The translations under genes were made by a program, and so were the position numbers. This document shows positions 2,849-38,745 of a stretch of DNA of 64,000 nt, in pieces. Source of the DNA: Candidatus Nealsonbacteria bacterium (GTDB lineage Bacteria > Patescibacteriota > Minisyncoccia > Minisyncoccales > MHMH01); assembly GCA_016188865.1 (NCBI GenBank), contig JACPGX010000001.1, positions 205,197-269,196 of the forward strand. The letters run 5' to 3'. Under the pieces are notes generated by a model. The model saw only the letters and a program-made list of their open reading frames with translations. It was not told where the DNA came from and did not search any database. How positions within the stretch are numbered: the stretch's first letter is position 1; each line of letters starts with the position of its first letter.

Positions 2849-4159
2849 CTATTCAGTGCGGGATTCAAGTACAACCTTAAAAATCAATTCTTTTCCGCTC
2901 CTAAAAACTTTCAGGACAACTTCATCTCCAGAATTATATTTTTGCATGATTTTTGCCAAAGAATTTTCAGCAGTTATTTTTTCACTATTGAATTCTAAAA
3001 TAATATCTGCCTCTTTAAGGCCTGCTTTTTCTGCGGCAGAATTAGGCAAAATAGCAGCTTCTCCCTTGCCGGTTACAAGCCAAGCGCCGTAAGAAACTGG
3101 CAAGTTATTATCTTGCTGAATTTTTTCTGTGATAATGGTGTATTTTATTCCTAAAAAGGGATAAATAATTTTCCCTGAATATTTAACTTGCTCAATATCT
3201 CTTTTAGCTTTATTGACCGGTATGGCAAAGCCAATGTTTTGAGCTTCAAGGACTGTGGCCGTGTTGATTCCAACGACTTCGCCCATTAAATTCAAAAGGG
3301 GGCCGCCCGAATTGCCTTTGTTGATTGCCGCATCTGTTTGAATAACATCCTCAATGGTTTCCACTAGACCGCCGCCTTCGGCAGTAATTGTTCTGCCCAA
3401 ACCGGAAATTACTCCAACGGAAATGGTATTCCTAAATTCGCCTAAAGCGTTTCCAATGGTAATGACTGTTTGGCCAATCTGCAGTTTGTCAGAATTACCG
3501 AGCTCAACCACTGGAAAATATTTTTGAATCAGCTGGCCCGAATCGTCAATTCGGCTTTTCGTTTCAATTCTTAATACGGCTAAATCCTGTAGAGGATCTC
3601 TAGCTAAAACTTTTGCTGAAAACTTTTTTCCATCATTGGTAAAAACAGTGTAATCCGCTTCCTCGTCTAGAACTACGTGTTTATTAGTTAAAATCATGCC
3701 ATCTTCAGAAACAATGAAGCCGGTACCTCCGCCAATTTCTTTCTTTTCCGTTCCTATTTGGCGCTTCTGAGGAACGCCAAAATTAAAAGGCTCCCCAAAA
3801 ATCTGTTCAAATTCCTGAAAAGGATTAATGTAATACTGCTCAAAAACCGGCAAATCCTTGCTAATAACAATGCTAACTACAGCCGGAGAGGCAGTTTTAA
3901 TCACATTGATAATTTTTTCCTCTTCAGTAGTTTGAGGAATATATTCTTTTTCAATTGCTTTTTCTGGAGATGGGGTGCTAAACTTTGAAAGATAGTCTTT
4001 GGCTTCAAAATAAAAAACGCTGCCGGAAATAATGCCTGCCAAAAAGCCAAAAAATGAAGACGCAAAAATAATGGATGCAAAAATCCAAAAAGTCTTATTT
4101 TTCCAGAACTTGGGGAATTTTATTTTTATATTAGGAGAATCCAAATCGTAAAGCGTCAT
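2849..4159 (-). CDS. htrA: HtrA/DegP-type trypsin-like serine protease with C-terminal PDZ domain
   Basis: TM anchor, TNKHVV, GNSGGPLLN, and a PDZ-like tail. ATGA overlap with the iscU stop. Confidence 0.9.
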   Translation of the reverse strand: MTLYDLDSPNIKIKFPKFWKNKTFWIFASIIFASSFFGFLAGIISGSVFYFEAKDYLSKFSTPSPEKAIEKEYIPQTTEEEKIINVIKTASPAVVSIVISKDLPVFEQYYINPFQEFEQIFGEPFNFGVPQKRQIGTEKKEIGGGTGFIVSEDGMILTNKHVVLDEEADYTVFTNDGKKFSAKVLARDPLQDLAVLRIETKSRIDDSGQLIQKYFPVVELGNSDKLQIGQTVITIGNALGEFRNTISVGVISGLGRTITAEGGGLVETIEDVIQTDAAINKGNSGGPLLNLMGEVVGINTATVLEAQNIGFAIPVNKAKRDIEQVKYSGKIIYPFLGIKYTIITEKIQQDNNLPVSYGAWLVTGKGEAAILPNSAAEKAGLKEADIILEFNSEKITAENSLAKIMQKYNSGDEVVLKVFRSGKELIFKVVLESRTE

Positions 4160-5631
4160 TTTTTAAATTTTTGATTGTAATCGTCAACTGCAGCTTTTAA
4201 AGCTGACTTAGCTAAGTAAGAGCAATGAACTTTAGCCGGCGGAACTTCACCAAGCTCTTTGACGATATCTTTATAGTCGATTTTTAATGCCTCTTCAATT
4301 GTTTTTCCTTTAACCACTTCGCACATTATATCAGAAATGCTTATGGCGTGCCCGCAATTATGTACCGCAAAACCTTTAACTAAATAAGAATTGGGCGTTC
4401 CGTCTACCAACATATTATATACATATCCTGCATATTTGCTTCTAATTATTTTTTTGATGGGCACAAGGAAATAATTTTTCGTGAAATAAACAAAATTATG
4501 ACCTTTTCTTTTCAGCCTAAAGAAAACATCGTAAATCGGCCCAGATGACACCTTGCGACCTTCTATATAATTTCTCGATGGGTCAAATTTTCTTTTTCTA
4601 ATACTGGAAAATATCTTGCATCTCGCCAAAATTTCTTGCATTTGGATGGCCAAATCTTTGGAGGCGGTCGTTATCTCGTATCGCGGATAATCTCCCACTC
4701 TCCGTACCGAAGACGAGCCATCTCCTTTAATATAAGTTTTAATCATTTCCCATTGTTTTTTAGACGGCAAAACTAGTATCTCATCAGCTAATTTCTTTTG
4801 AGTAGCGTAGCTTCCGCAAATTTTCTTAAAAAATTTACACCACTGCCTAGAGCAAATATAAATTTCGATGACATTGCCCCTAATTCTTTCTTTGGGAACC
4901 TTTTTTGTAACATCGATAAGTAATTTCTGGAGCTCTGCAATATTATCTTTTTCATTTTTATTAAGGGAGAAGTTTAATGCTCCACTATTAGCCGTAACGT
5001 ATCCCTCTGCCAGATAATAACCGATTAATTTCATTATTTTTGAAGTAAATTGAGGATTGTCTTTTATTTTTCTATTAGAAACATAAACAAGGTAATCACC
5101 CCTTACTAATTCTCCGGCGAATACAGGGTCGGGTTTTTTAGACAAAAGCTCATCTTTTTTAATTTTGAGCCAATCGCATTTTTTGTTATAGCGTCGAGCA
5201 GATTTAAGCTTATTCCTTTTTATGCAAAACACTGGATGTTCGGAAGTGACAGAAAATTTATTAAATGGTGAAACAAAAGGCAGTAAAGTCAACATCGGAC
5301 CGCTATATTTTCTTTTAAATGTTTTGAGCACTGTCGTTGCTCGACCATTGCTATTTAAAACTGTTTTACCTTTCTTAATTGTAGAAATTGCACCCCAATC
5401 TCCCTCATTAAATAACACTTCTCCTTTAGGCGGTAGACATCCAAAAGTTTCGAACTTTACATCTTCAATAATTTCTTTTCCTCCGACTTTCTTTACTTTT
5501 ATGTACATTTTCATAACGTCTCCGCAGCGCATATTCTGGGTATCGCCAATGCCCGAGGCATCTTTAATTTTACCCATATTTTTAGGATGAAGAAAATGCT
5601 CTATGACTTTTTTGCTATAGTAAGGTTTCAT
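4156..5631 (-). CDS. iscU: IscU/NifU-type Fe-S scaffold interrupted by an intein
   Basis: Exteins: 64 aa ending ..NMRCGDVM..KFETFG, and 66 aa beginning CGHAISISD..KVHCS. Spliced, they give the canonical TFGCG..HCS IscU core. Confidence 0.9.
   Translation of the reverse strand: MKPYYSKKVIEHFLHPKNMGKIKDASGIGDTQNMRCGDVMKMYIKVKKVGGKEIIEDVKFETFGCLPPKGEVLFNEGDWGAISTIKKGKTVLNSNGRATTVLKTFKRKYSGPMLTLLPFVSPFNKFSVTSEHPVFCIKRNKLKSARRYNKKCDWLKIKKDELLSKKPDPVFAGELVRGDYLVYVSNRKIKDNPQFTSKIMKLIGYYLAEGYVTANSGALNFSLNKNEKDNIAELQKLLIDVTKKVPKERIRGNVIEIYICSRQWCKFFKKICGSYATQKKLADEILVLPSKKQWEMIKTYIKGDGSSSVRRVGDYPRYEITTASKDLAIQMQEILARCKIFSSIRKRKFDPSRNYIEGRKVSSGPIYDVFFRLKRKGHNFVYFTKNYFLVPIKKIIRSKYAGYVYNMLVDGTPNSYLVKGFAVHNCGHAISISDIMCEVVKGKTIEEALKIDYKDIVKELGEVPPAKVHCSYLAKSALKAAVDDYNQKFKK
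4357..5439 (-). mobile_element. Full-length intein (361 aa) with LAGLIDADG homing-endonuclease domain
   Basis: Cys1 (CLPPKG..), block B TSEHP, LAGLIDADG motifs LIGYYLAEGYV and YIKGDGSS, terminal VHN followed by +1 Cys. Confidence 0.85.
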
Positions 5632-5687: not shown

Positions 5688-6839
5688 TTATTTATAGCCA
5701 GATATTTGCCTCAATCTCTGTATAACCTGCGGTAGAACTTTTAAAAACTTGGTAATCTCTTCTTGGGTTGTGTATCTCCCCAAGGTAATCCTTAGGGAAC
5801 CGTGGGCTTCTTCGTGAGAAAGGCCTAAGGCCAAAAGCACATGGGACGGCTCTAGGCTCTTTGCCGAGCAAGCGGAGCCCGTAGAAACGGCAATGCCTTT
5901 TTGGTCTAAAGCTATGACCATAGCTTCCCCCTCCGCCCCATCTATGGTGACATTAATGTTATTAGGCAAACGCTGGATCGGCGAGCCGTTCAATTTAGAG
6001 TCAGAAACAATCTTTAAAATTGTCTTAATCAATTTATCGCGAAATTGCCTGATCCTTATAATATTAATTTTGATTTTTGGGTTTTGAGTTTCTTCGATGG
6101 CAGCTCCCAAGCCGACAATTGCAGGCACATTTTCAGTGCCCGACCTTCTGCCCTGTTCTTGGCCGCCGCCGTAAATTAGCGGGTTTAACAAAATTCCCTT
6201 TTTTACAAAAAGAGCCCCTACGCCTTTTGGCCCGTAAATTTTGTGGCCGCTTAGCGTCAGCAAATCTACGCCAAGTTTTTTTACGTCGCAGTCTAAATAA
6301 TTTGCCGCCTGCACCGCATCGGTATGAAAATATATTTTATTTTTCCGAGCTTTTAGCAATTCTCCAATCTCGGCAATGGGTTGTATGGTGCCAATTTCGT
6401 TATTGGCGTACATTATGGAAACCAAAATAGTATTTAGCTTAATAGCTTTTTCAACATCGGAAACTTTCACTAAGCCATCTTTGTCTACCGGCAAGTAAGT
6501 CACTTCCACTCCTTCTTTTTCTAGCTTTTGGCATGGCTCTAAAATAGCATGATGCTCAATCTGCGTCGTAATTATGTGATCGCCTTTTTTAATTAAGCCG
6601 AAAATTGCTAGATTATTTGCTTCAGTGGCAGAACCGGTAAAAATAACTTCGTCAAGCTCGCAACCTAAAAAACTCGCTACTTTTTGCCGAGCATCGTCAA
6701 TGGCGGCAATAGCCTTCTGGCCAAAACTATGTATAGAAGAGGGATTGCCAAAATCCTTTTTAAAGTAAGTCTTCATCGCCTCCATGACCTTAGGGTCAAC
6801 GGGCGTGGTAGACGCGTAGTCTAAATAAATCTTTGGCAT
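5688..6839 (-). CDS. iscS: Cysteine desulfurase (NifS/IscS class)
   Basis: PLP lysine SGHKIYGPKG and active-site STGSACS. Confidence 0.93.
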   Translation of the reverse strand: MPKIYLDYASTTPVDPKVMEAMKTYFKKDFGNPSSIHSFGQKAIAAIDDARQKVASFLGCELDEVIFTGSATEANNLAIFGLIKKGDHIITTQIEHHAILEPCQKLEKEGVEVTYLPVDKDGLVKVSDVEKAIKLNTILVSIMYANNEIGTIQPIAEIGELLKARKNKIYFHTDAVQAANYLDCDVKKLGVDLLTLSGHKIYGPKGVGALFVKKGILLNPLIYGGGQEQGRRSGTENVPAIVGLGAAIEETQNPKIKINIIRIRQFRDKLIKTILKIVSDSKLNGSPIQRLPNNINVTIDGAEGEAMVIALDQKGIAVSTGSACSAKSLEPSHVLLALGLSHEEAHGSLRITLGRYTTQEEITKFLKVLPQVIQRLRQISGYK

Positions 6840-6871: not shown

Positions 6872-8428
6872 TTATTTATTTTCAACCACCTTCCTGAATT
6901 TTTCAGTCGGAAAAAAGCCCATATACTTTCCCAGCATTAATCTAGTTTGGGCATCAATGGCCGGAATCGCCCCGAAAATCACTAAAGCAACTGGAAGAAA
7001 AAGCCATTGGGTCGCCATTGATAATAACTTTTTACGGGTAAAATGAAAAGCGCTGAAGCGAAGCAATAATGTGCTTACAATAATGCCTGCTACCAAACCT
7101 ACCAATGCTAATGTCATTAAATTGCTAGTTATCTGGGGAAGATTATAAGATAGGACCATTCCATTAAAATCGCTGCGCCCAAGCAGCAAGGGCAGCCAGC
7201 CCAAAAAAAGCAATAATAAGGCATTAGTCCCCCAGGCCCAAAAAGATTCTATCATTAAGAAGGCGTAGCGGAATTTTTTACGTAAAGATATTTTGTTATT
7301 TTTTAGAAATCCGAAAAGCAAATAAGGAATGCCTTCAGAGCCCCAGGCCCAGCGCCGCTGCTGTTTGTATTGATTAATAGCTGTCTGCCATGCATTCTTG
7401 GCAACGCAGGAATCCATTGATAAAGGATAATGAATCGGAATAATTTGGTAATCGCCGTCGTAAAATAAAAAAGCCTTCCAAAAAATTCCTGCGTCTTCTG
7501 AAACCACATTTTTTTGCCAAAAACCAATTTCCACCAATGCTTTAAAGCTCATTGAGTGAGATGAATAAGTGGTCAACTTTTCCGGCCTCTGCTGCTGCAT
7601 CATCTGCCAAAAAACATTAGAGGAAGAAACTATCCTGGAAAAAAATGGGGCCTCCAAAATATTGTTGAAATAAAGGGGAATCGGCTGAAAGCTTGATCTA
7701 ACTGCATCTTTGCTGGTCAAATAGTAGTAAGTCAAACAGTTGAAATATTGAGGATAGACTTGCGTGTCAGCGTCAAAACAGGAAACAATAATATTTTGAT
7801 AAGGAATTTTTAATTTATCGATAATCTCTTTCTTCGCCTGCCTGCCAGCCCAGCTTTCATTGGAACCTTTCCCGGCAATTTCGCCTTCAATGCCTTTGGG
7901 ATGGCGGGTTACCAGTAAACGGAAAAATTTATTTCCAAATTCTTTTTTTATTCCTTCTGCCATCTCTCTTGCTTGCAATTCAGCCCTTTCTTCTGTGGCC
8001 AGCACTGCAATTATTTTATCTTTCGGATATTTGCTGACAGCCAAAGCTTTAAAAGAGCCGCGCATTACTCTTAAATCTTCTTTATATGTCGGAAAAATCA
8101 CCAAATGGTATACTTCTTCCCAATTAGCCGCCGGCAGCTGATTTAATTTCTCTTGCCAATCAATATTTAAATTTTTTTTCATTTGCCTGTATTCTAAAGT
8201 TAAATGCAGCACAAAATGAATAGTCCTTAGCAGCCAATAAACGCAAAATCCGATGATAAAATAAGCAACAAAAACCGGAAAAAGCCAGGAAAAAACAGGC
8301 ATGCCGATTAAAGTGCTCCAAATTAAAACGCCGGGCAAAATTTCAAAAGCCCGATAAACTATTCTTTCTTTTTTATCTTTCAAATCAGTCGCTCTGCCGA
8401 TATTAATGTAATATTTATGAATAACCAT
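6872..8428 (-). CDS. Processive family-2 glycosyltransferase (cellulose/chitin-synthase-like), multi-TM
   Basis: FDADTQ and QQRRWAWG (QxxRW), with TM helices at both ends. Start trimmed to ATG 8426-8428, which overlaps the TAA of the upstream ORF (TAATG). Confidence 0.75.
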   Translation of the reverse strand: MVIHKYYINIGRATDLKDKKERIVYRAFEILPGVLIWSTLIGMPVFSWLFPVFVAYFIIGFCVYWLLRTIHFVLHLTLEYRQMKKNLNIDWQEKLNQLPAANWEEVYHLVIFPTYKEDLRVMRGSFKALAVSKYPKDKIIAVLATEERAELQAREMAEGIKKEFGNKFFRLLVTRHPKGIEGEIAGKGSNESWAGRQAKKEIIDKLKIPYQNIIVSCFDADTQVYPQYFNCLTYYYLTSKDAVRSSFQPIPLYFNNILEAPFFSRIVSSSNVFWQMMQQQRPEKLTTYSSHSMSFKALVEIGFWQKNVVSEDAGIFWKAFLFYDGDYQIIPIHYPLSMDSCVAKNAWQTAINQYKQQRRWAWGSEGIPYLLFGFLKNNKISLRKKFRYAFLMIESFWAWGTNALLLLFLGWLPLLLGRSDFNGMVLSYNLPQITSNLMTLALVGLVAGIIVSTLLLRFSAFHFTRKKLLSMATQWLFLPVALVIFGAIPAIDAQTRLMLGKYMGFFPTEKFRKVVENK

Positions 8429-9009
8429 TATTTCTTGAATTCTTCTTTTGGCTTCAATATGCCGACGGCTGCAGCTAAAATAATTACAATTATTGTGAGA
8501 GTGAAAAATAAACCAATAATCCACAGCCATTCTTTCAATAATGCCAGAGAAAACTTTGCGTATAGCAAGGCGGAAATCATTAAAGCGAACCAGTAATCGA
8601 CTGGCAAATGCAAAAACCATTTTTTATGCCACAAAACATGCTCTCCCCAAAAACTTCTAAAATCGTACTTGGGATTAACAACAAACCACAGGAAATCCCA
8701 GATAATCACAACCAAAAATAGAAAAGAAAGGGCAGTGAATTCTGAAGAAAAATTCCATACTTTTCCAGCGAAATACGGATAATGCATGAAAATAAAAACC
8801 AGGCTAAAAACCAGCAAATGGTAAAGCGTCAATTCCCTGCCGCCCATAAACTTTCCATAAAGACGCGAATACCACTTAGATGAGACGGGCTTCCAAGTAG
8901 GCAAATTAGCCGCCCAGCCGGCTGCGCCCTCTATTTGCGTTTCCAAACCGGCCAGCACCAGACAGAACAAAAAAAGAAAAATAATTTGAATAAATAAATG
9001 AAAATCCAT
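8428..9009 (-). CDS. Polytopic membrane protein, unknown function
   Basis: 193 aa with about 6 hydrophobic segments. Translationally coupled to the GT2 gene. Confidence 0.6.
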   Translation of the reverse strand: MDFHLFIQIIFLFLFCLVLAGLETQIEGAAGWAANLPTWKPVSSKWYSRLYGKFMGGRELTLYHLLVFSLVFIFMHYPYFAGKVWNFSSEFTALSFLFLVVIIWDFLWFVVNPKYDFRSFWGEHVLWHKKWFLHLPVDYWFALMISALLYAKFSLALLKEWLWIIGLFFTLTIIVIILAAAVGILKPKEEFKK

Positions 9010-15146: not shown

Positions 15147-17354
15147 TTATATATTGCAAGTTGGGCAGGCGCCTGGCGGCAAATCAGGAATCTGCGGAGA
15201 AGGATCTCTCAATTCCGGAGGAATTTCCTGTTCTGGAATTTTTTCTTTTTCCTCCTTAAGCTGAATTTCTGATTGCCCGCTAGATTTTATATTCAACACC
15301 TGCTGCTGCCGGCTGCCAGTCCTAAATACGGTAACGCCCTTGCATCCCAAATCAAAAGCCAGGAAGTAAGCTTTTCTTACATCATCTTCTGAAGCCTCAA
15401 ATGGGAAATTAATTGTCTTTGATACGGCATTATCTGAGTATTTTTGGAAAGCCGCTTGAATACGAACATGGTCTTCCGGAACAATGTCAAAAGTGGTTAT
15501 AAAAATTTGCCTGATGTCTTTCGGTATCTCTTCAAAATTTTGAATGCTGGGCTCTCCAGAAATTTTTTCAATTAGTTCTTCTGAATAAAATCCTCTCTTT
15601 TTTGCTATTTCCTCAAAGACAGGATTTATTTCTACTAATTCCTGCCCGCCTAAAACATGCTTTCTGGTAAAAGCCACTGTGAATAAAGGCTCTATCCCAG
15701 AAGAACAGCCGGCAATAATGCCGATAGTGCCAGTGGGCGCTATAGTGGTGGTGGTAGCGTTTCTCATTTTTAACAAAGACCCCTCTTTATCGTAAATGCT
15801 GTTCTTAAAATTAGGAAAAGCTCCTCTTTCTTCAGCCAGCTTGGCTGAAGTATTTTTGGATTCATCTTGAATAAATTTCATTATTTTTTCGGCTATGGAT
15901 AAAGCCTCTTTAGAATTATAAGGCATCTCCAATCTAATCAGCATGTCGGCAAAACCCATTACCCCTAAACCAATTTTTCTGTTGCCCTTAGTCATTTCTT
16001 CAATTTGCGGCAAAGGATAGCGGTTTACCTCGACAACATTATCCAAAAAGCGCACCGCGTTAGAAACTGTTTCTCTAAGTTTCTGCCAATTAATTTCCCA
16101 CCTACCCTGAGCCGCGCCGAAGGGTTTTTTTTCTGCAAGCATTTTAGCCAAATTAATACTGCCCAAGTTGCACGATTCGTACGGCAATAATGGTTGTTCA
16201 CCGCATGGGTTGGTGCTTTCAATGTCTCCCAATCTCGGAGTCGGATTAAACTCGTTAATTCTATCAATAAAAATCACTCCGGGGTCGCCCGTCTGCCAAG
16301 CGTAGCGGACAATCATATCAAAAACTTTTTTAGCATTAAGCTTGCCCCAAACTTGGCCGGTTCGCGGATTAATCAAGTCGTAATCTTCCCCCAATTTGGC
16401 TTTTTTCATAAAATCATCCGTGGCGGCAACGGAAATATTAAAATTAGAAAGAATGCCTTCTTCTGTCTTGGCAGTAATAAACTCAAGAATATCAGGATGG
16501 TCTACTCTTAAAATACCCATATTAGCGCCGCGTCTTTTTCCGCCTTGCTTTATGGTTTGAGTAGCTGCATCGAAAACGGTCATAAAACTTATGGGGCCAG
16601 AAGCTACGCCTTTGGTGGATTTCACAATATCGCCCTTTGGCCTTAAACGGGCGAAAGAATAGCCCGTTCCCCCTCCAGACTGATGAATTAAAGCACCATT
16701 TTTTACGGCATCAAAAATTCCATCCATTGAGTCTGGGATCGGGATCACAAAACACGCACTAAGCTGCTGCAGGGGGTTGCCGGCATTCATCAATGTCGGA
16801 GAATTGGGTAAAAATTCCAGAGAAGCCATCATGTGATAAAATTTTTCTTCTATCTGAAATACCTGCTCATCGGTCAAATCCGGCTTATAAATTTTTTCAG
16901 CCGAAGATATATTTTGAGAAACCCTCTTGAATAATTCCTGCGGCGTTTCAACGATTTTACCTTCGTCATTTTTGTTTAAATACCTTGATTCTAAAACTCG
17001 AAGCGCGTTAGAGCTCAATTTTGTCTTAAACTCAAAATTCAATAGCCACCACTTGGCTTCCCTGATTTCCGCTCTTTTCTGGCGATAGGTATGATAAGCA
17101 TGGGCAACTTTTTCCAATCCGTTAGTCTGCAAAACCTCTTCAACAATATCTTGGATTTGCTCCACTCCGGGAATTTTGCCAGCCAATCTTTCATTCAAAA
17201 TTAAAACTACCTTATCTGAAAGACCTCCGGCCAGCGTTTCATTTTCTCCAGTAGCTACTAATGCTTTAGAAACAGCATCGGTAATTTGGCTTTGATCCCA
17301 GTCAACTAGCCTGCCGTCCCTTTTTTTAATTTTTGGAAATTTGCTTTCTGCCAT
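15147..17354 (-). CDS. nrdJ: Class II (adenosylcobalamin-dependent) ribonucleotide reductase with ATP-cone
   Basis: N-terminal ATP-cone, active-site NPCGEQPL, C-terminal Cys pair (CPTC). Confidence 0.93.
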   Translation of the reverse strand: MAESKFPKIKKRDGRLVDWDQSQITDAVSKALVATGENETLAGGLSDKVVLILNERLAGKIPGVEQIQDIVEEVLQTNGLEKVAHAYHTYRQKRAEIREAKWWLLNFEFKTKLSSNALRVLESRYLNKNDEGKIVETPQELFKRVSQNISSAEKIYKPDLTDEQVFQIEEKFYHMMASLEFLPNSPTLMNAGNPLQQLSACFVIPIPDSMDGIFDAVKNGALIHQSGGGTGYSFARLRPKGDIVKSTKGVASGPISFMTVFDAATQTIKQGGKRRGANMGILRVDHPDILEFITAKTEEGILSNFNISVAATDDFMKKAKLGEDYDLINPRTGQVWGKLNAKKVFDMIVRYAWQTGDPGVIFIDRINEFNPTPRLGDIESTNPCGEQPLLPYESCNLGSINLAKMLAEKKPFGAAQGRWEINWQKLRETVSNAVRFLDNVVEVNRYPLPQIEEMTKGNRKIGLGVMGFADMLIRLEMPYNSKEALSIAEKIMKFIQDESKNTSAKLAEERGAFPNFKNSIYDKEGSLLKMRNATTTTIAPTGTIGIIAGCSSGIEPLFTVAFTRKHVLGGQELVEINPVFEEIAKKRGFYSEELIEKISGEPSIQNFEEIPKDIRQIFITTFDIVPEDHVRIQAAFQKYSDNAVSKTINFPFEASEDDVRKAYFLAFDLGCKGVTVFRTGSRQQQVLNIKSSGQSEIQLKEEKEKIPEQEIPPELRDPSPQIPDLPPGACPTCNI

Positions 17355-37872: not shown

Positions 37873-38745
37873 TTATTTAAATTCTCTGATTATGTTATCC
37901 CAGTTGGTTTTTCTGTCAATTGTATGCCAGGGTTGTTTTAATTGAGGCCACTGGGATTCAAAAGTGGCGCGTTCCGTCTGGTAAAAAACGCCAATGGGCA
38001 CTTTGGTATCTTTTTCGTAAGAATAATCCCATTCTCTGACTCTCTCCAGGGCTTGGCTAAAATTGCCAGCATCGTGAGTCTCCTCTAATTTATAAACATT
38101 TTTAGTCAAATAAGGCACTGAATGCTTATGGTAAACAATGCAGGGCTGTAAAATATCAAGAAAGGCAAAACCTTTATGCGTTATGGCTTTTTTCATCAGT
38201 TCTTTTAAATGCGGCCCCTGCAAAGCATAACCCCTGGCCACGAAAGTAGCGCCCAAATCTAAGGCCATAAGTAAGGAATTAATCGGCTTTTCTCCTTGGC
38301 CTAAAGGAGTGGAACCATCAACAAATCCTTTTTCCGTAAGAGCAGTAGCTTGTCCGGTAGTCAAAGCAAAAACCTGATTAGTATGCACCATCATGGTCAT
38401 GTCGGCGTTATACCTGCAAGCGTGAACAAAATGAGAAACGCCTTCGTCAAAAGTATCGCCGTCTCCTCCGAATCCTACCACAGTTAAATCGGGGTTTCCC
38501 AATTTTATTCCTAAACAAACCGGCAAAACCCTGCCATGCAGCCCGTTAAAGCCGTTTAAATTTACGTAGTCAAAAATCTTGCCGTGGCAGCCGATGCCAG
38601 CCACTAAAGAAGTATCTTTGACGCTTATTTTTCCTTCATTGACCAATTCGGCCAGCGCCTCTTTAATTGAGTTCAAAATGCCGAAATTGGGACAGCCGGG
38701 GCACCAGGTATTTATTTCTTTTGTTGTAAAATCTTGCGGAGTCAT
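37873..38745 (-). CDS. korB: 2-oxoacid:ferredoxin oxidoreductase, beta (TPP) subunit
   Basis: WCPGCPNFG and GGDGD. Confidence 0.88.
   Translation of the reverse strand: MTPQDFTTKEINTWCPGCPNFGILNSIKEALAELVNEGKISVKDTSLVAGIGCHGKIFDYVNLNGFNGLHGRVLPVCLGIKLGNPDLTVVGFGGDGDTFDEGVSHFVHACRYNADMTMMVHTNQVFALTTGQATALTEKGFVDGSTPLGQGEKPINSLLMALDLGATFVARGYALQGPHLKELMKKAITHKGFAFLDILQPCIVYHKHSVPYLTKNVYKLEETHDAGNFSQALERVREWDYSYEKDTKVPIGVFYQTERATFESQWPQLKQPWHTIDRKTNWDNIIREFK

Follow-up and report, generated by a model that had tools for sequence, protein, structure and literature searches.

An interrupted iscU gene and its host protein

The 64,000-nt stretch of the Candidatus Nealsonbacteria contig JACPGX010000001.1 analysed here (hereafter the window) carries an iscU gene, encoding an iron-sulfur (Fe-S) cluster assembly scaffold, whose coding sequence is interrupted in frame by a predicted intein. 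The gene is a single continuous open reading frame (ORF) within a nifS-iscU-htrA operon (4156..5631, minus strand, as for all window features below; 491 aa plus stop, 56.2 kDa calculated). The original prediction had divided this ORF into a 130-aa IscU and a 361-aa intein, a division borne out to the base by translation, Pfam matches and alignment of the spliced protein. The N-extein (aa 1-64; 5440..5631) contains the ligand residues Cys36 and Asp38 (MRCGD) and ends in FETFG, and the C-extein (aa 426-491; 4159..4356) begins with the Cys+1 residue, encoded by the TGC codon at 4356..4354, and contains His108-Cys109 (VHCS, numbered as in the spliced protein). The exteins of 64 aa and 66 aa together make up the 130-aa host protein, and the insertion point lies between Gly64 and the following Cys, directly before the Cys of the TFGCG motif.

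The precursor matches the Pfam family NifU_N (2.4e-38) in two stretches, with a break at profile position ~56. Once conceptually spliced, the 130-aa protein gives one unbroken NifU_clost match (positions 1-119 of 121, 1.9e-45), matches the IscU model (1.6e-36) and aligns without gaps over the splice junction to crystallised IscU (9wfy/2z7e; FETFG|CGHAIS vs FKTFGCGSAIA, E ~1e-36). The cluster-site residues Cys36, Asp38, Cys65, His108 and Cys109 all lie in the expected motifs of the spliced protein. Its Cys65, i.e., the Cys+1 of the intein, aligns with Cys63 of IscU (E. coli and Aquifex numbering), which agrees with the earlier claim that the +1 Cys is the ligand cysteine of TFGCG. The active-site cysteines of IscU are Cys37, Cys63 and Cys106, and a disulfide between Cys63 and the persulfide cysteine of IscS has been trapped (PMC2854127). 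Similar to the IscU proteins of Aquifex aeolicus (2z7e/9wfy) and E. coli, with which it is colinear, the spliced protein has the three cysteines, the Asp and the His; unlike them, its gene is intein-interrupted and it reads CGHAIS instead of CGSAIA. By Pfam the host is a member of the NifU_N family, whereas the exact equivalog assignment falls below the NCBIfam cut-offs (154.2 vs 187.9 bits for TIGR03419, NifU_clost; 125.1 vs 192.4 bits for TIGR01999). Because of these scores the host is classed here as a divergent Patescibacteria-type IscU. The precursor is 100% identical to a protein found on 5 contigs (P0001), which bears the NCBI name 'MAG: iron-sulfur cluster assembly scaffold protein [Candidatus Nealsonbacteria bacterium]', MAG denoting a metagenome-assembled genome.

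Architecture of the predicted intein

The interrupting element (4357..5439; 361 aa, 41.6 kDa) is read as a Hint splicing domain with an inserted LAGLIDADG endonuclease domain, on the combined evidence of its translation, Pfam, a structural model and its absence from the syntenic locus L081 (see below). Its translation starts with CLPPKGE and ends with GFAVHN, the next residue being Cys, and every element first listed for it (Cys1, TSEHP, two LAGLIDADG motifs, a terminal HN and the +1 Cys) is found at the nucleotide level. Block A, Cys1-Leu-Pro, reads CLPPKGEVLFNEG (5401..5439, with the Cys1 codon at 5439..5437). Residues C1, L2 and P3 show no or almost no variation across 196 inteins of the wider lineage; Cys1 occurs in all of them, inclusion in this set having been partly selected on this residue. 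Block B, TSEHP (5233..5247), comprises Thr65, His68 and Pro69 of the intein, and its T65 and H68, together with K215, Q268 and N342, are invariant in 196/196 members. The first LAGLIDADG motif, LIGYYLAEGY (4999..5028; LAGLIDADG_3), carries the catalytic Glu145, with Glu or Asp in 194/196 members, and the second, IKTYIKGDG (4717..4743), carries the catalytic Asp240, with Asp in 193/196; the acidic residues are thus kept in at least 98% of the lineage. Blocks F and G, GYVYNMLVDGTPNSYLVKGFAVHN (4357..4428; VYNMLVDGTPNSYLVKGFAVHN as read off the translation of 4428..4357), include Asn342, His360 and Asn361 and have a matching motif, VYNLDVENPDSYLAYGFAVHN, in the Mycobacterium tuberculosis SufB intein. 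The C-terminal junction VHN|C lies at nt 4365..4354.

The Pfam model LAGLIDADG_3 matches the intein above its cut-off (1.8e-12). An AlphaFold2 model built with 13 family members as input (pLDDT 87.3, pTM 0.87) retrieves in Foldseek the TliVMA intein 7qsu as the best match (E 2.5e-21, TM 0.70), followed by PI-SceI, PI-PkoII and PI-PfuI, and its endonuclease part retrieves I-DmoI and I-Tsp061I (E 2e-7 to 1e-5). The secondary structure of model residues 133-283 repeats the alpha-beta-beta-alpha-beta-beta-alpha fold of LAGLIDADG endonucleases twice, and a sequence search of the PDB with the intein returns V-ATPase inteins and PI-PkoII and nothing else. The VMA1/V-ATPase inteins, PI-SceI, PI-PkoII and PI-PfuI (7qsu, 7qss, 1vde, 2cw7, 1dq3) share the two-domain architecture of Hint and LAGLIDADG parts with the window intein and are its top structural matches (E 1e-14 to 2.5e-21, TM 0.6-0.7), whereas their sequence identity to it is 10-18%, their hosts and insertion sites are unrelated, and inteins of the PI-SceI type have an additional DNA-recognition region. 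The element is thus very probably a canonical class-1 intein with a monomeric double-LAGLIDADG homing endonuclease, inserted between the iscU codons for Gly62 and Cys63 (E. coli numbering).

Two further cysteines of the window intein, Cys88 (nt 5178..5176) and Cys196 (nt 4854..4852), are Cys in 90% and 93% of IscU-hosted inteins, respectively. Position 196 is also Cys in the KorB-hosted inteins described below and Tyr in 43/45 SufB-hosted ones, and Cys at position 88 is found solely in the IscU-hosted group.

Relatives in IscU, SufB and KorB

Homologous inteins occupy the same site in at least 145 distinct IscU proteins of bacteria and archaea. A search of 5.8 billion proteins found at least 119 further proteins of 470-645 aa that combine NifU_N with LAGLIDADG_3; each of the 120 best homologues is an IscU whose intein measures 357-366 aa and occupies the same junction, which in all parsable members reads F[KE]T[FL]G | C...GF[AV]VHN | C[GAV]xA. 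The IscU-hosted inteins are 43-93% identical to each other and uniform in length. A library of 1.84 billion cluster representatives gave 918 matches at E<=1e-30, which are LAGLIDADG inteins of many hosts and no guide to family size, since 50% clustering collapses the IscU inteins to few representatives.

In the closest pairs with DNA available, dN/dS is 0.07-0.15 in the endonuclease domain and 0.09-0.15 in the splicing domain, and both exteins are under strong constraint as well. Given the conserved residues and a dN/dS of ~0.1 in both domains, splicing and endonuclease activities both appear to be under purifying selection. This evidence bears on the idea that the intein is a fixed remnant, which still splices and has an inactive endonuclease, and which is kept since precise deletion is rare and imprecise deletion would ruin an essential gene. 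Such a remnant would fit a fully ameliorated composition, the lack of a second copy in the window and the lack of a near-identical intein in any distant host, the nearest being 65% identical. A decaying endonuclease should, however, show the opposite of three features observed here: both LAGLIDADG acidic residues and their surrounding motifs are intact, in the window and in at least 98% of members; the endonuclease, with a dN/dS of ~0.1, is as constrained as the splicing domain; and no mini-intein derivative occurs at the IscU site among the 145 members. The remnant explanation is therefore disfavoured and, in our estimate, improbable.

Beyond IscU, the nearest known relative is the M. tuberculosis SufB (Pps1) intein (Rv1461), whose junctions read YVHYVEG | CLPAGE...GFAVHN | CTAPIY (Table S2 of PMC8891592) and which splices in vitro by the canonical route through Cys1, Cys+1 and Asn (PMC8891592). 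The two inteins align along their entire length (29% identity across 362 aa, E 9e-41), are of similar length (359 vs 361 aa), share the termini CLP...GFAVHN|C and have in common the motifs CLP, FSVTxEHP, GYYLAEG, GDG, ILAR, VPIKK, VYN and SYLxxGFAVHN|C. Each is hosted by a scaffold of Fe-S assembly, preceded by a Gly and followed by a functional Cys, whereas the host sites differ (YVEG|CTAP in SufB vs TFG|CGxA in IscU, the window having TFG|CGHA).

An intein-profile scan of one genome per GTDB species gave 203 loci. IscU genes account for 30 of the best 80, and the remaining loci are inteins of equal length and termini, 33-42% identical to that of the window, in SufB and in KorB, the beta subunit of 2-oxoacid:ferredoxin oxidoreductase. 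The SufB site (HY[IV]EG | C...HN | CTAP; spliced host vs SUFBD_core 3e-79) is that of the M. tuberculosis SufB intein. It probably corresponds to Glu252 and Cys254, since SufB Cys254 is the sulfur-entry cysteine and Glu252 a tunnel residue (PMC6006206) and the site reads E-G-C. The KorB site reads SGIG | C...HN | CGSK, and the spliced host matches TPP_enzyme_C and PFO_beta_C. The KorB-hosted inteins (L030-L033, L035, L036) resemble that of the window in length, termini, identity (39-42%) and Gly|Cys site, and group with the IscU-hosted ones; unlike these, they have another host and were seen, among the best 80 of 203 loci, in few archaeal MAGs only. The KorB gene of the window itself (37873..38745, minus strand, 290 aa, AGIG|CHGK) is uninterrupted, and a potential target for a relative of the window's own intein therefore stands empty. 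We know of no publication on KorB-hosted inteins of this lineage.

In an unrooted neighbour-joining (NJ) tree of 110 inteins, SufB-hosted inteins separate from the IscU- and KorB-hosted ones in 100/100 bootstraps. Given this separate clade and the different host and site, the window intein belongs, on sequence grounds, to a paralogous lineage that is related to Pps1 and is not a Pps1 allele. The KorB group is likewise monophyletic in 100/100 NJ bootstraps, and since monophyly of the IscU-hosted inteins relative to KorB has 44% bootstrap support only, the KorB group may derive from within the IscU group. Being unrooted, the tree allows a host switch in either direction, from SufB to IscU or the reverse. 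The three insertion sites have the DNA core GGN | TGC NNN GCN NCN in common, and this shared target core may have allowed rare host switches.

Several loci carry more than one intein or divergent ones. A second intein of ~150 aa lies before the first ligand cysteine of IscU (GNPV | CVTEG...TLHN | CGD) in P0033, P0052, P0058, P0094, L005, L012 and L017, which bear labels of Omnitrophota or Planctomycetia; the double-intein ORFs L005, L012 and L017 measure 636-645 aa, and L005 matches the Pfam model Intein_splicing at 2.2e-15. With two inteins per IscU, two of its three cysteines are splice junctions. In L021, the first IscU cysteine site holds a LAGLIDADG intein of full size. Among the IscU inteins that share the Gly|Cys junction of the window, divergent ones include that of P0282 (583 aa), with Ser as the first residue (RTFG|SLIADER...FHN|CGSAIA), and those of P0246 and L034, with a Cys-Cys start (TFG|CCEKG). 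KorB of L035 and L036 has a further intein at WCPG|C, and the SufB ORFs L038 (1617 aa) and L044 (1349 aa) contain two or three inteins at different sites, one of them the M. tuberculosis EG|C site.

Probable mobility and splicing, and their possible consequences

The twelve IscU alleles closest to the spliced extein (78-90% identical: 90, 88, 86, ...), those of other Nealsonbacteria included, are all intein-free and ~130 aa long, and the nearest intein-bearing IscU proteins have just 61-67% extein identity to that of the window. The search for empty sites that the original prediction had suggested thus turned out as expected. One of the empty alleles, at locus L081, is 90% identical to the window IscU and syntenic with it, in the order glycosyltransferase, NifS, IscU, HtrA, HD protein. 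BLASTN aligns L081 4001-4195 with window 5631-5437 (84.6%) and L081 4193-5636 with window 4356-2919 (72.8%), with exactly window nt 5436..4357 missing from L081; the window thus carries a clean 1083-nt insertion relative to L081, whose sequence around the empty site (nt ~4150-4240) reads GAAATTCGAAACGTATGGA|TGTGGGCACGCTATAAGT. The N-extein DNA (5437..5631) is thereby more similar to L081 than are nifS and the stretch of C-extein and htrA (84.6% vs 71-73%), which may simply reflect IscU conservation.

The genes that flank iscU in the window correspond to those of L081, with which it shares the NifS-IscU order. The iscU ORF starts 56 nt downstream of its operon partner, which encodes a 383-aa cysteine desulfurase of the NifS/IscS type (5688..6839; TIGR03402 FeS_nifS, 7e-155, with a score of 515 bits slightly under the 530.75 cut-off). 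Downstream, and of interest as context only, the iscU stop overlaps the start (ATGA) of a gene for a 436-aa HtrA-like serine protease with PDZ (2849..4159), the syntenic counterpart of which in L081 has Trypsin_2 and PDZ domains.

Other accounts of the interruption were rejected. The Pfam, NifU/IscU and PDB E-values rule out chance or a misread frame; an intron, insertion sequence or other DNA-level insertion is ruled out by an insert that is in frame, stop-free and equipped with all intein blocks; and an assembly chimera is ruled out by the 5 contigs, the colinear flanks and the hundreds of homologues. The same observations bear on the view that the intein does not splice and the interrupted iscU is inactivated, either as a pseudogene or as a binning or assembly chimera. 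Nothing specific speaks for inactivation apart from the sub-threshold scores of generic intein models (see below), and against it stand a frame intact over 1476 nt with all catalytic residues present, the identical protein on 5 contigs, hundreds of homologues of like architecture, strong constraint on both exteins and flanks colinear with the independent assembly L081. We regard inactivation as highly improbable.

The MAG labels of loci with an IscU intein span, among bacteria, Gribaldobacteria and other Patescibacteria, Omnitrophota, Aerophobetes, Planctomycetia, Clostridia, Armatimonadota and Caldiserica and, among archaea, Nano-, Aenigmat-, Had-, Woese- and Pacearchaeota, Iainarchaeum, Methanobacteriota and Thermoplasmatales. 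Intein and extein divergence correlate moderately (Spearman 0.44), and in some pairs the inteins are more alike than the exteins (e.g., 83% vs 60%). To judge by these sequences, such a patchy distribution is the pattern expected of a homing element.

A mechanism can be proposed on this basis. The 56.2-kDa precursor would be unable to act as a scaffold because the loop with Cys63 is interrupted, and it is a sound inference from the sequence that scaffold function would depend strictly on splicing. Splicing would begin with an N-S acyl shift at Cys1 and continue with transthioesterification to Cys+1, after which Asn361 would cyclise and an S-N shift would follow. The products would be a 14.6-kDa IscU, in which FETFG-CGHAIS is the native sequence, and the 41.6-kDa intein in free form (calculated masses); the predicted ligated-junction peptide of spliced IscU is FETFGCGHAISISDIMCEVVK. 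One cysteine would thus play two roles, first as splice nucleophile and later as sulfur acceptor and cluster ligand. The freed endonuclease would cut intein-less iscU around ...TTYGGA|TGYGGN GCN GCN AT..., and the intein would be copied into the cut allele by recombinational repair (homing), which would explain the patchy distribution over bacteria and archaea. The lineage would share ancestry with the SufB (Pps1) intein and would have come to IscU and KorB through rare ectopic moves, the sites having a similar Gly|Cys-x-Ala core.

Several points weigh against an active, mobile intein. Both splicing and DNA cleavage by the window protein are inferred from its sequence. The comparison with generic intein models gives a significant E-value, and the scores stay under the curated cut-offs (Pfam Intein_splicing 2.1e-6, 28.1 bits vs a 35.8-bit cut-off; TIGR01443 12.9 bits vs 15.6 bits), because these models are short and split by the endonuclease insert. 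The 196-member alignment has a family-wide Asn in place of the usual block-F Asp; this Asn is also present in the M. tuberculosis SufB intein, which splices. The MAG taxonomic labels, taken as given, may include binning errors, and close relatives could lack the intein because it was lost there, not because it was gained here. With a G+C content of 0.348 vs 0.359 and a G+C at third codon positions (GC3) of 0.31 vs 0.34, the intein equals the exteins in composition, so there is no compositional sign of recent arrival, and recent foreign DNA, considered as a candidate on these values, gave no signal. A scan of IMG/VR found no close copy on viral contigs, the best match being 33% identical and in a SufB gene. 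This match comes from L083 (IMGVR_UViG_3300020057_000035, 111.8 kb, classed as viral), where an 832-aa SufB contains an intein of the lineage at EG|C, and the contig may be a misclassified cellular one or a SufB-carrying virus. The other IMG/VR matches are distant inteins in phage proteins.

Modelled on a proposal for the M. tuberculosis SufB intein, a further reading makes the intein a domesticated regulator, the splicing of which would be conditional on redox state or on Fe/Zn occupancy and would gate the active scaffold post-translationally. This reading is compatible with a homing intein and adds a function at the level of the host. Consistent with it, the lineage precedes a functional cysteine in each of two unrelated Fe-S scaffolds (Cys63 of IscU and EG|C of SufB) and also occurs in KorB, some IscU carry a further intein ahead of the first ligand cysteine, the IscU-hosted lineage is old (43-93% identity, uniform length, purifying selection), Cys88 (90%) and Cys196 (93%) are conserved specifically within it, and a Cys1-Cys+1 disulfide is possible in principle. 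Selfish inteins generally insert before conserved catalytic nucleophiles, however, and this requires no host benefit; moreover, the nearest relatives thrive intein-free and the conserved catalytic residues of the endonuclease favour continued mobility over domestication. Domestication thus seems unlikely, though slightly less so than the remnant explanation. Sensitivity of splicing to redox or metals is plausible, because splicing needs two reduced cysteines at a metal-binding site, and a regulatory role is treated here as a minority hypothesis. A wider conjecture, which we also consider improbable, would have one ancient intein lineage specialised on sulfur-handling or cluster cysteines of Fe-S proteins (IscU Cys63, in some relatives IscU Cys37, the SufB EG|C sulfur-entry cysteine and cysteines of the KorB Fe-S/TPP subunit) and retained in many anaerobic ultra-small bacteria and archaea because splicing through a cysteine that afterwards binds sulfur or iron would serve as a redox- or metal-sensitive checkpoint on scaffold maturation; if true, conditional protein splicing would be a general regulator of Fe-S biogenesis.

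The best-known inteins are those in proteins of replication, repair and nucleotide metabolism. Within Fe-S biogenesis, the chief one under study is the SufB intein, for which roles as stress sensor and drug target have been proposed. The homing intein favoured here places a homologous element in the other major scaffold, at a cluster cysteine, in more than 100 distinct sequences and in both prokaryotic domains. It would provide another, independent system in which to ask whether redox state or metals regulate splicing in Fe-S assembly. Additionally, it is a clear example from nature of a single intein lineage that moves between unrelated genes whose Gly|Cys-x-Ala targets are similar, which bears on how homing endonucleases gain new sites. 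In an organism with a minimal NifS-IscU system, every Fe-S enzyme would rely on the splicing step; the 64-kb window contains no SufB gene and no second IscU. There is also an annotation problem, as 'IscU' proteins of 480-640 aa are named as ordinary scaffolds, with a length that could lead metabolic reconstructions of Patescibacteria, DPANN and Omnitrophota astray.

InBase is not known to list an intein in IscU or NifU. Full-text literature searches found papers on the SufB intein and none describing an intein in IscU or NifU, neither of which is mentioned in the main text of one survey (Novikova, 2015). The element is not rare, with at least 145 distinct IscU proteins in public data and a relative in SufB/Pps1. 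The novelty lies in the literature and not in the databases, where the sequences are abundant under generic names. What emerges is a new, sizeable and apparently undescribed allele family of a well-known kind of element, with a known and clear relative; the mechanism is not new, and the element is no oddity confined to this genome.

Some further observations concern inteins and genes outside iscU. The ribonucleotide reductase of the window (15147..17354, minus strand), a B12-dependent NrdJ with an ATP-cone, gives one unbroken match to NF006417 (979.6 bits, above the cut-off) and is indeed intein-free, as had been claimed. Three giant proteins, P0242 (3308 aa), P0244 (3003 aa) and P0267 (4920 aa), contain 8-10 separate intein-profile matches each, and P0242, with an intein-profile score of 418 bits, is nearer to the IscU type than most SufB inteins. 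Upstream of nifS, a 582-aa ORF that resembles a multi-pass membrane protein (6872..8620, minus strand) has no Pfam match at 1e-5, and its counterpart in L081 is assigned to Glyco_trans_2_3.

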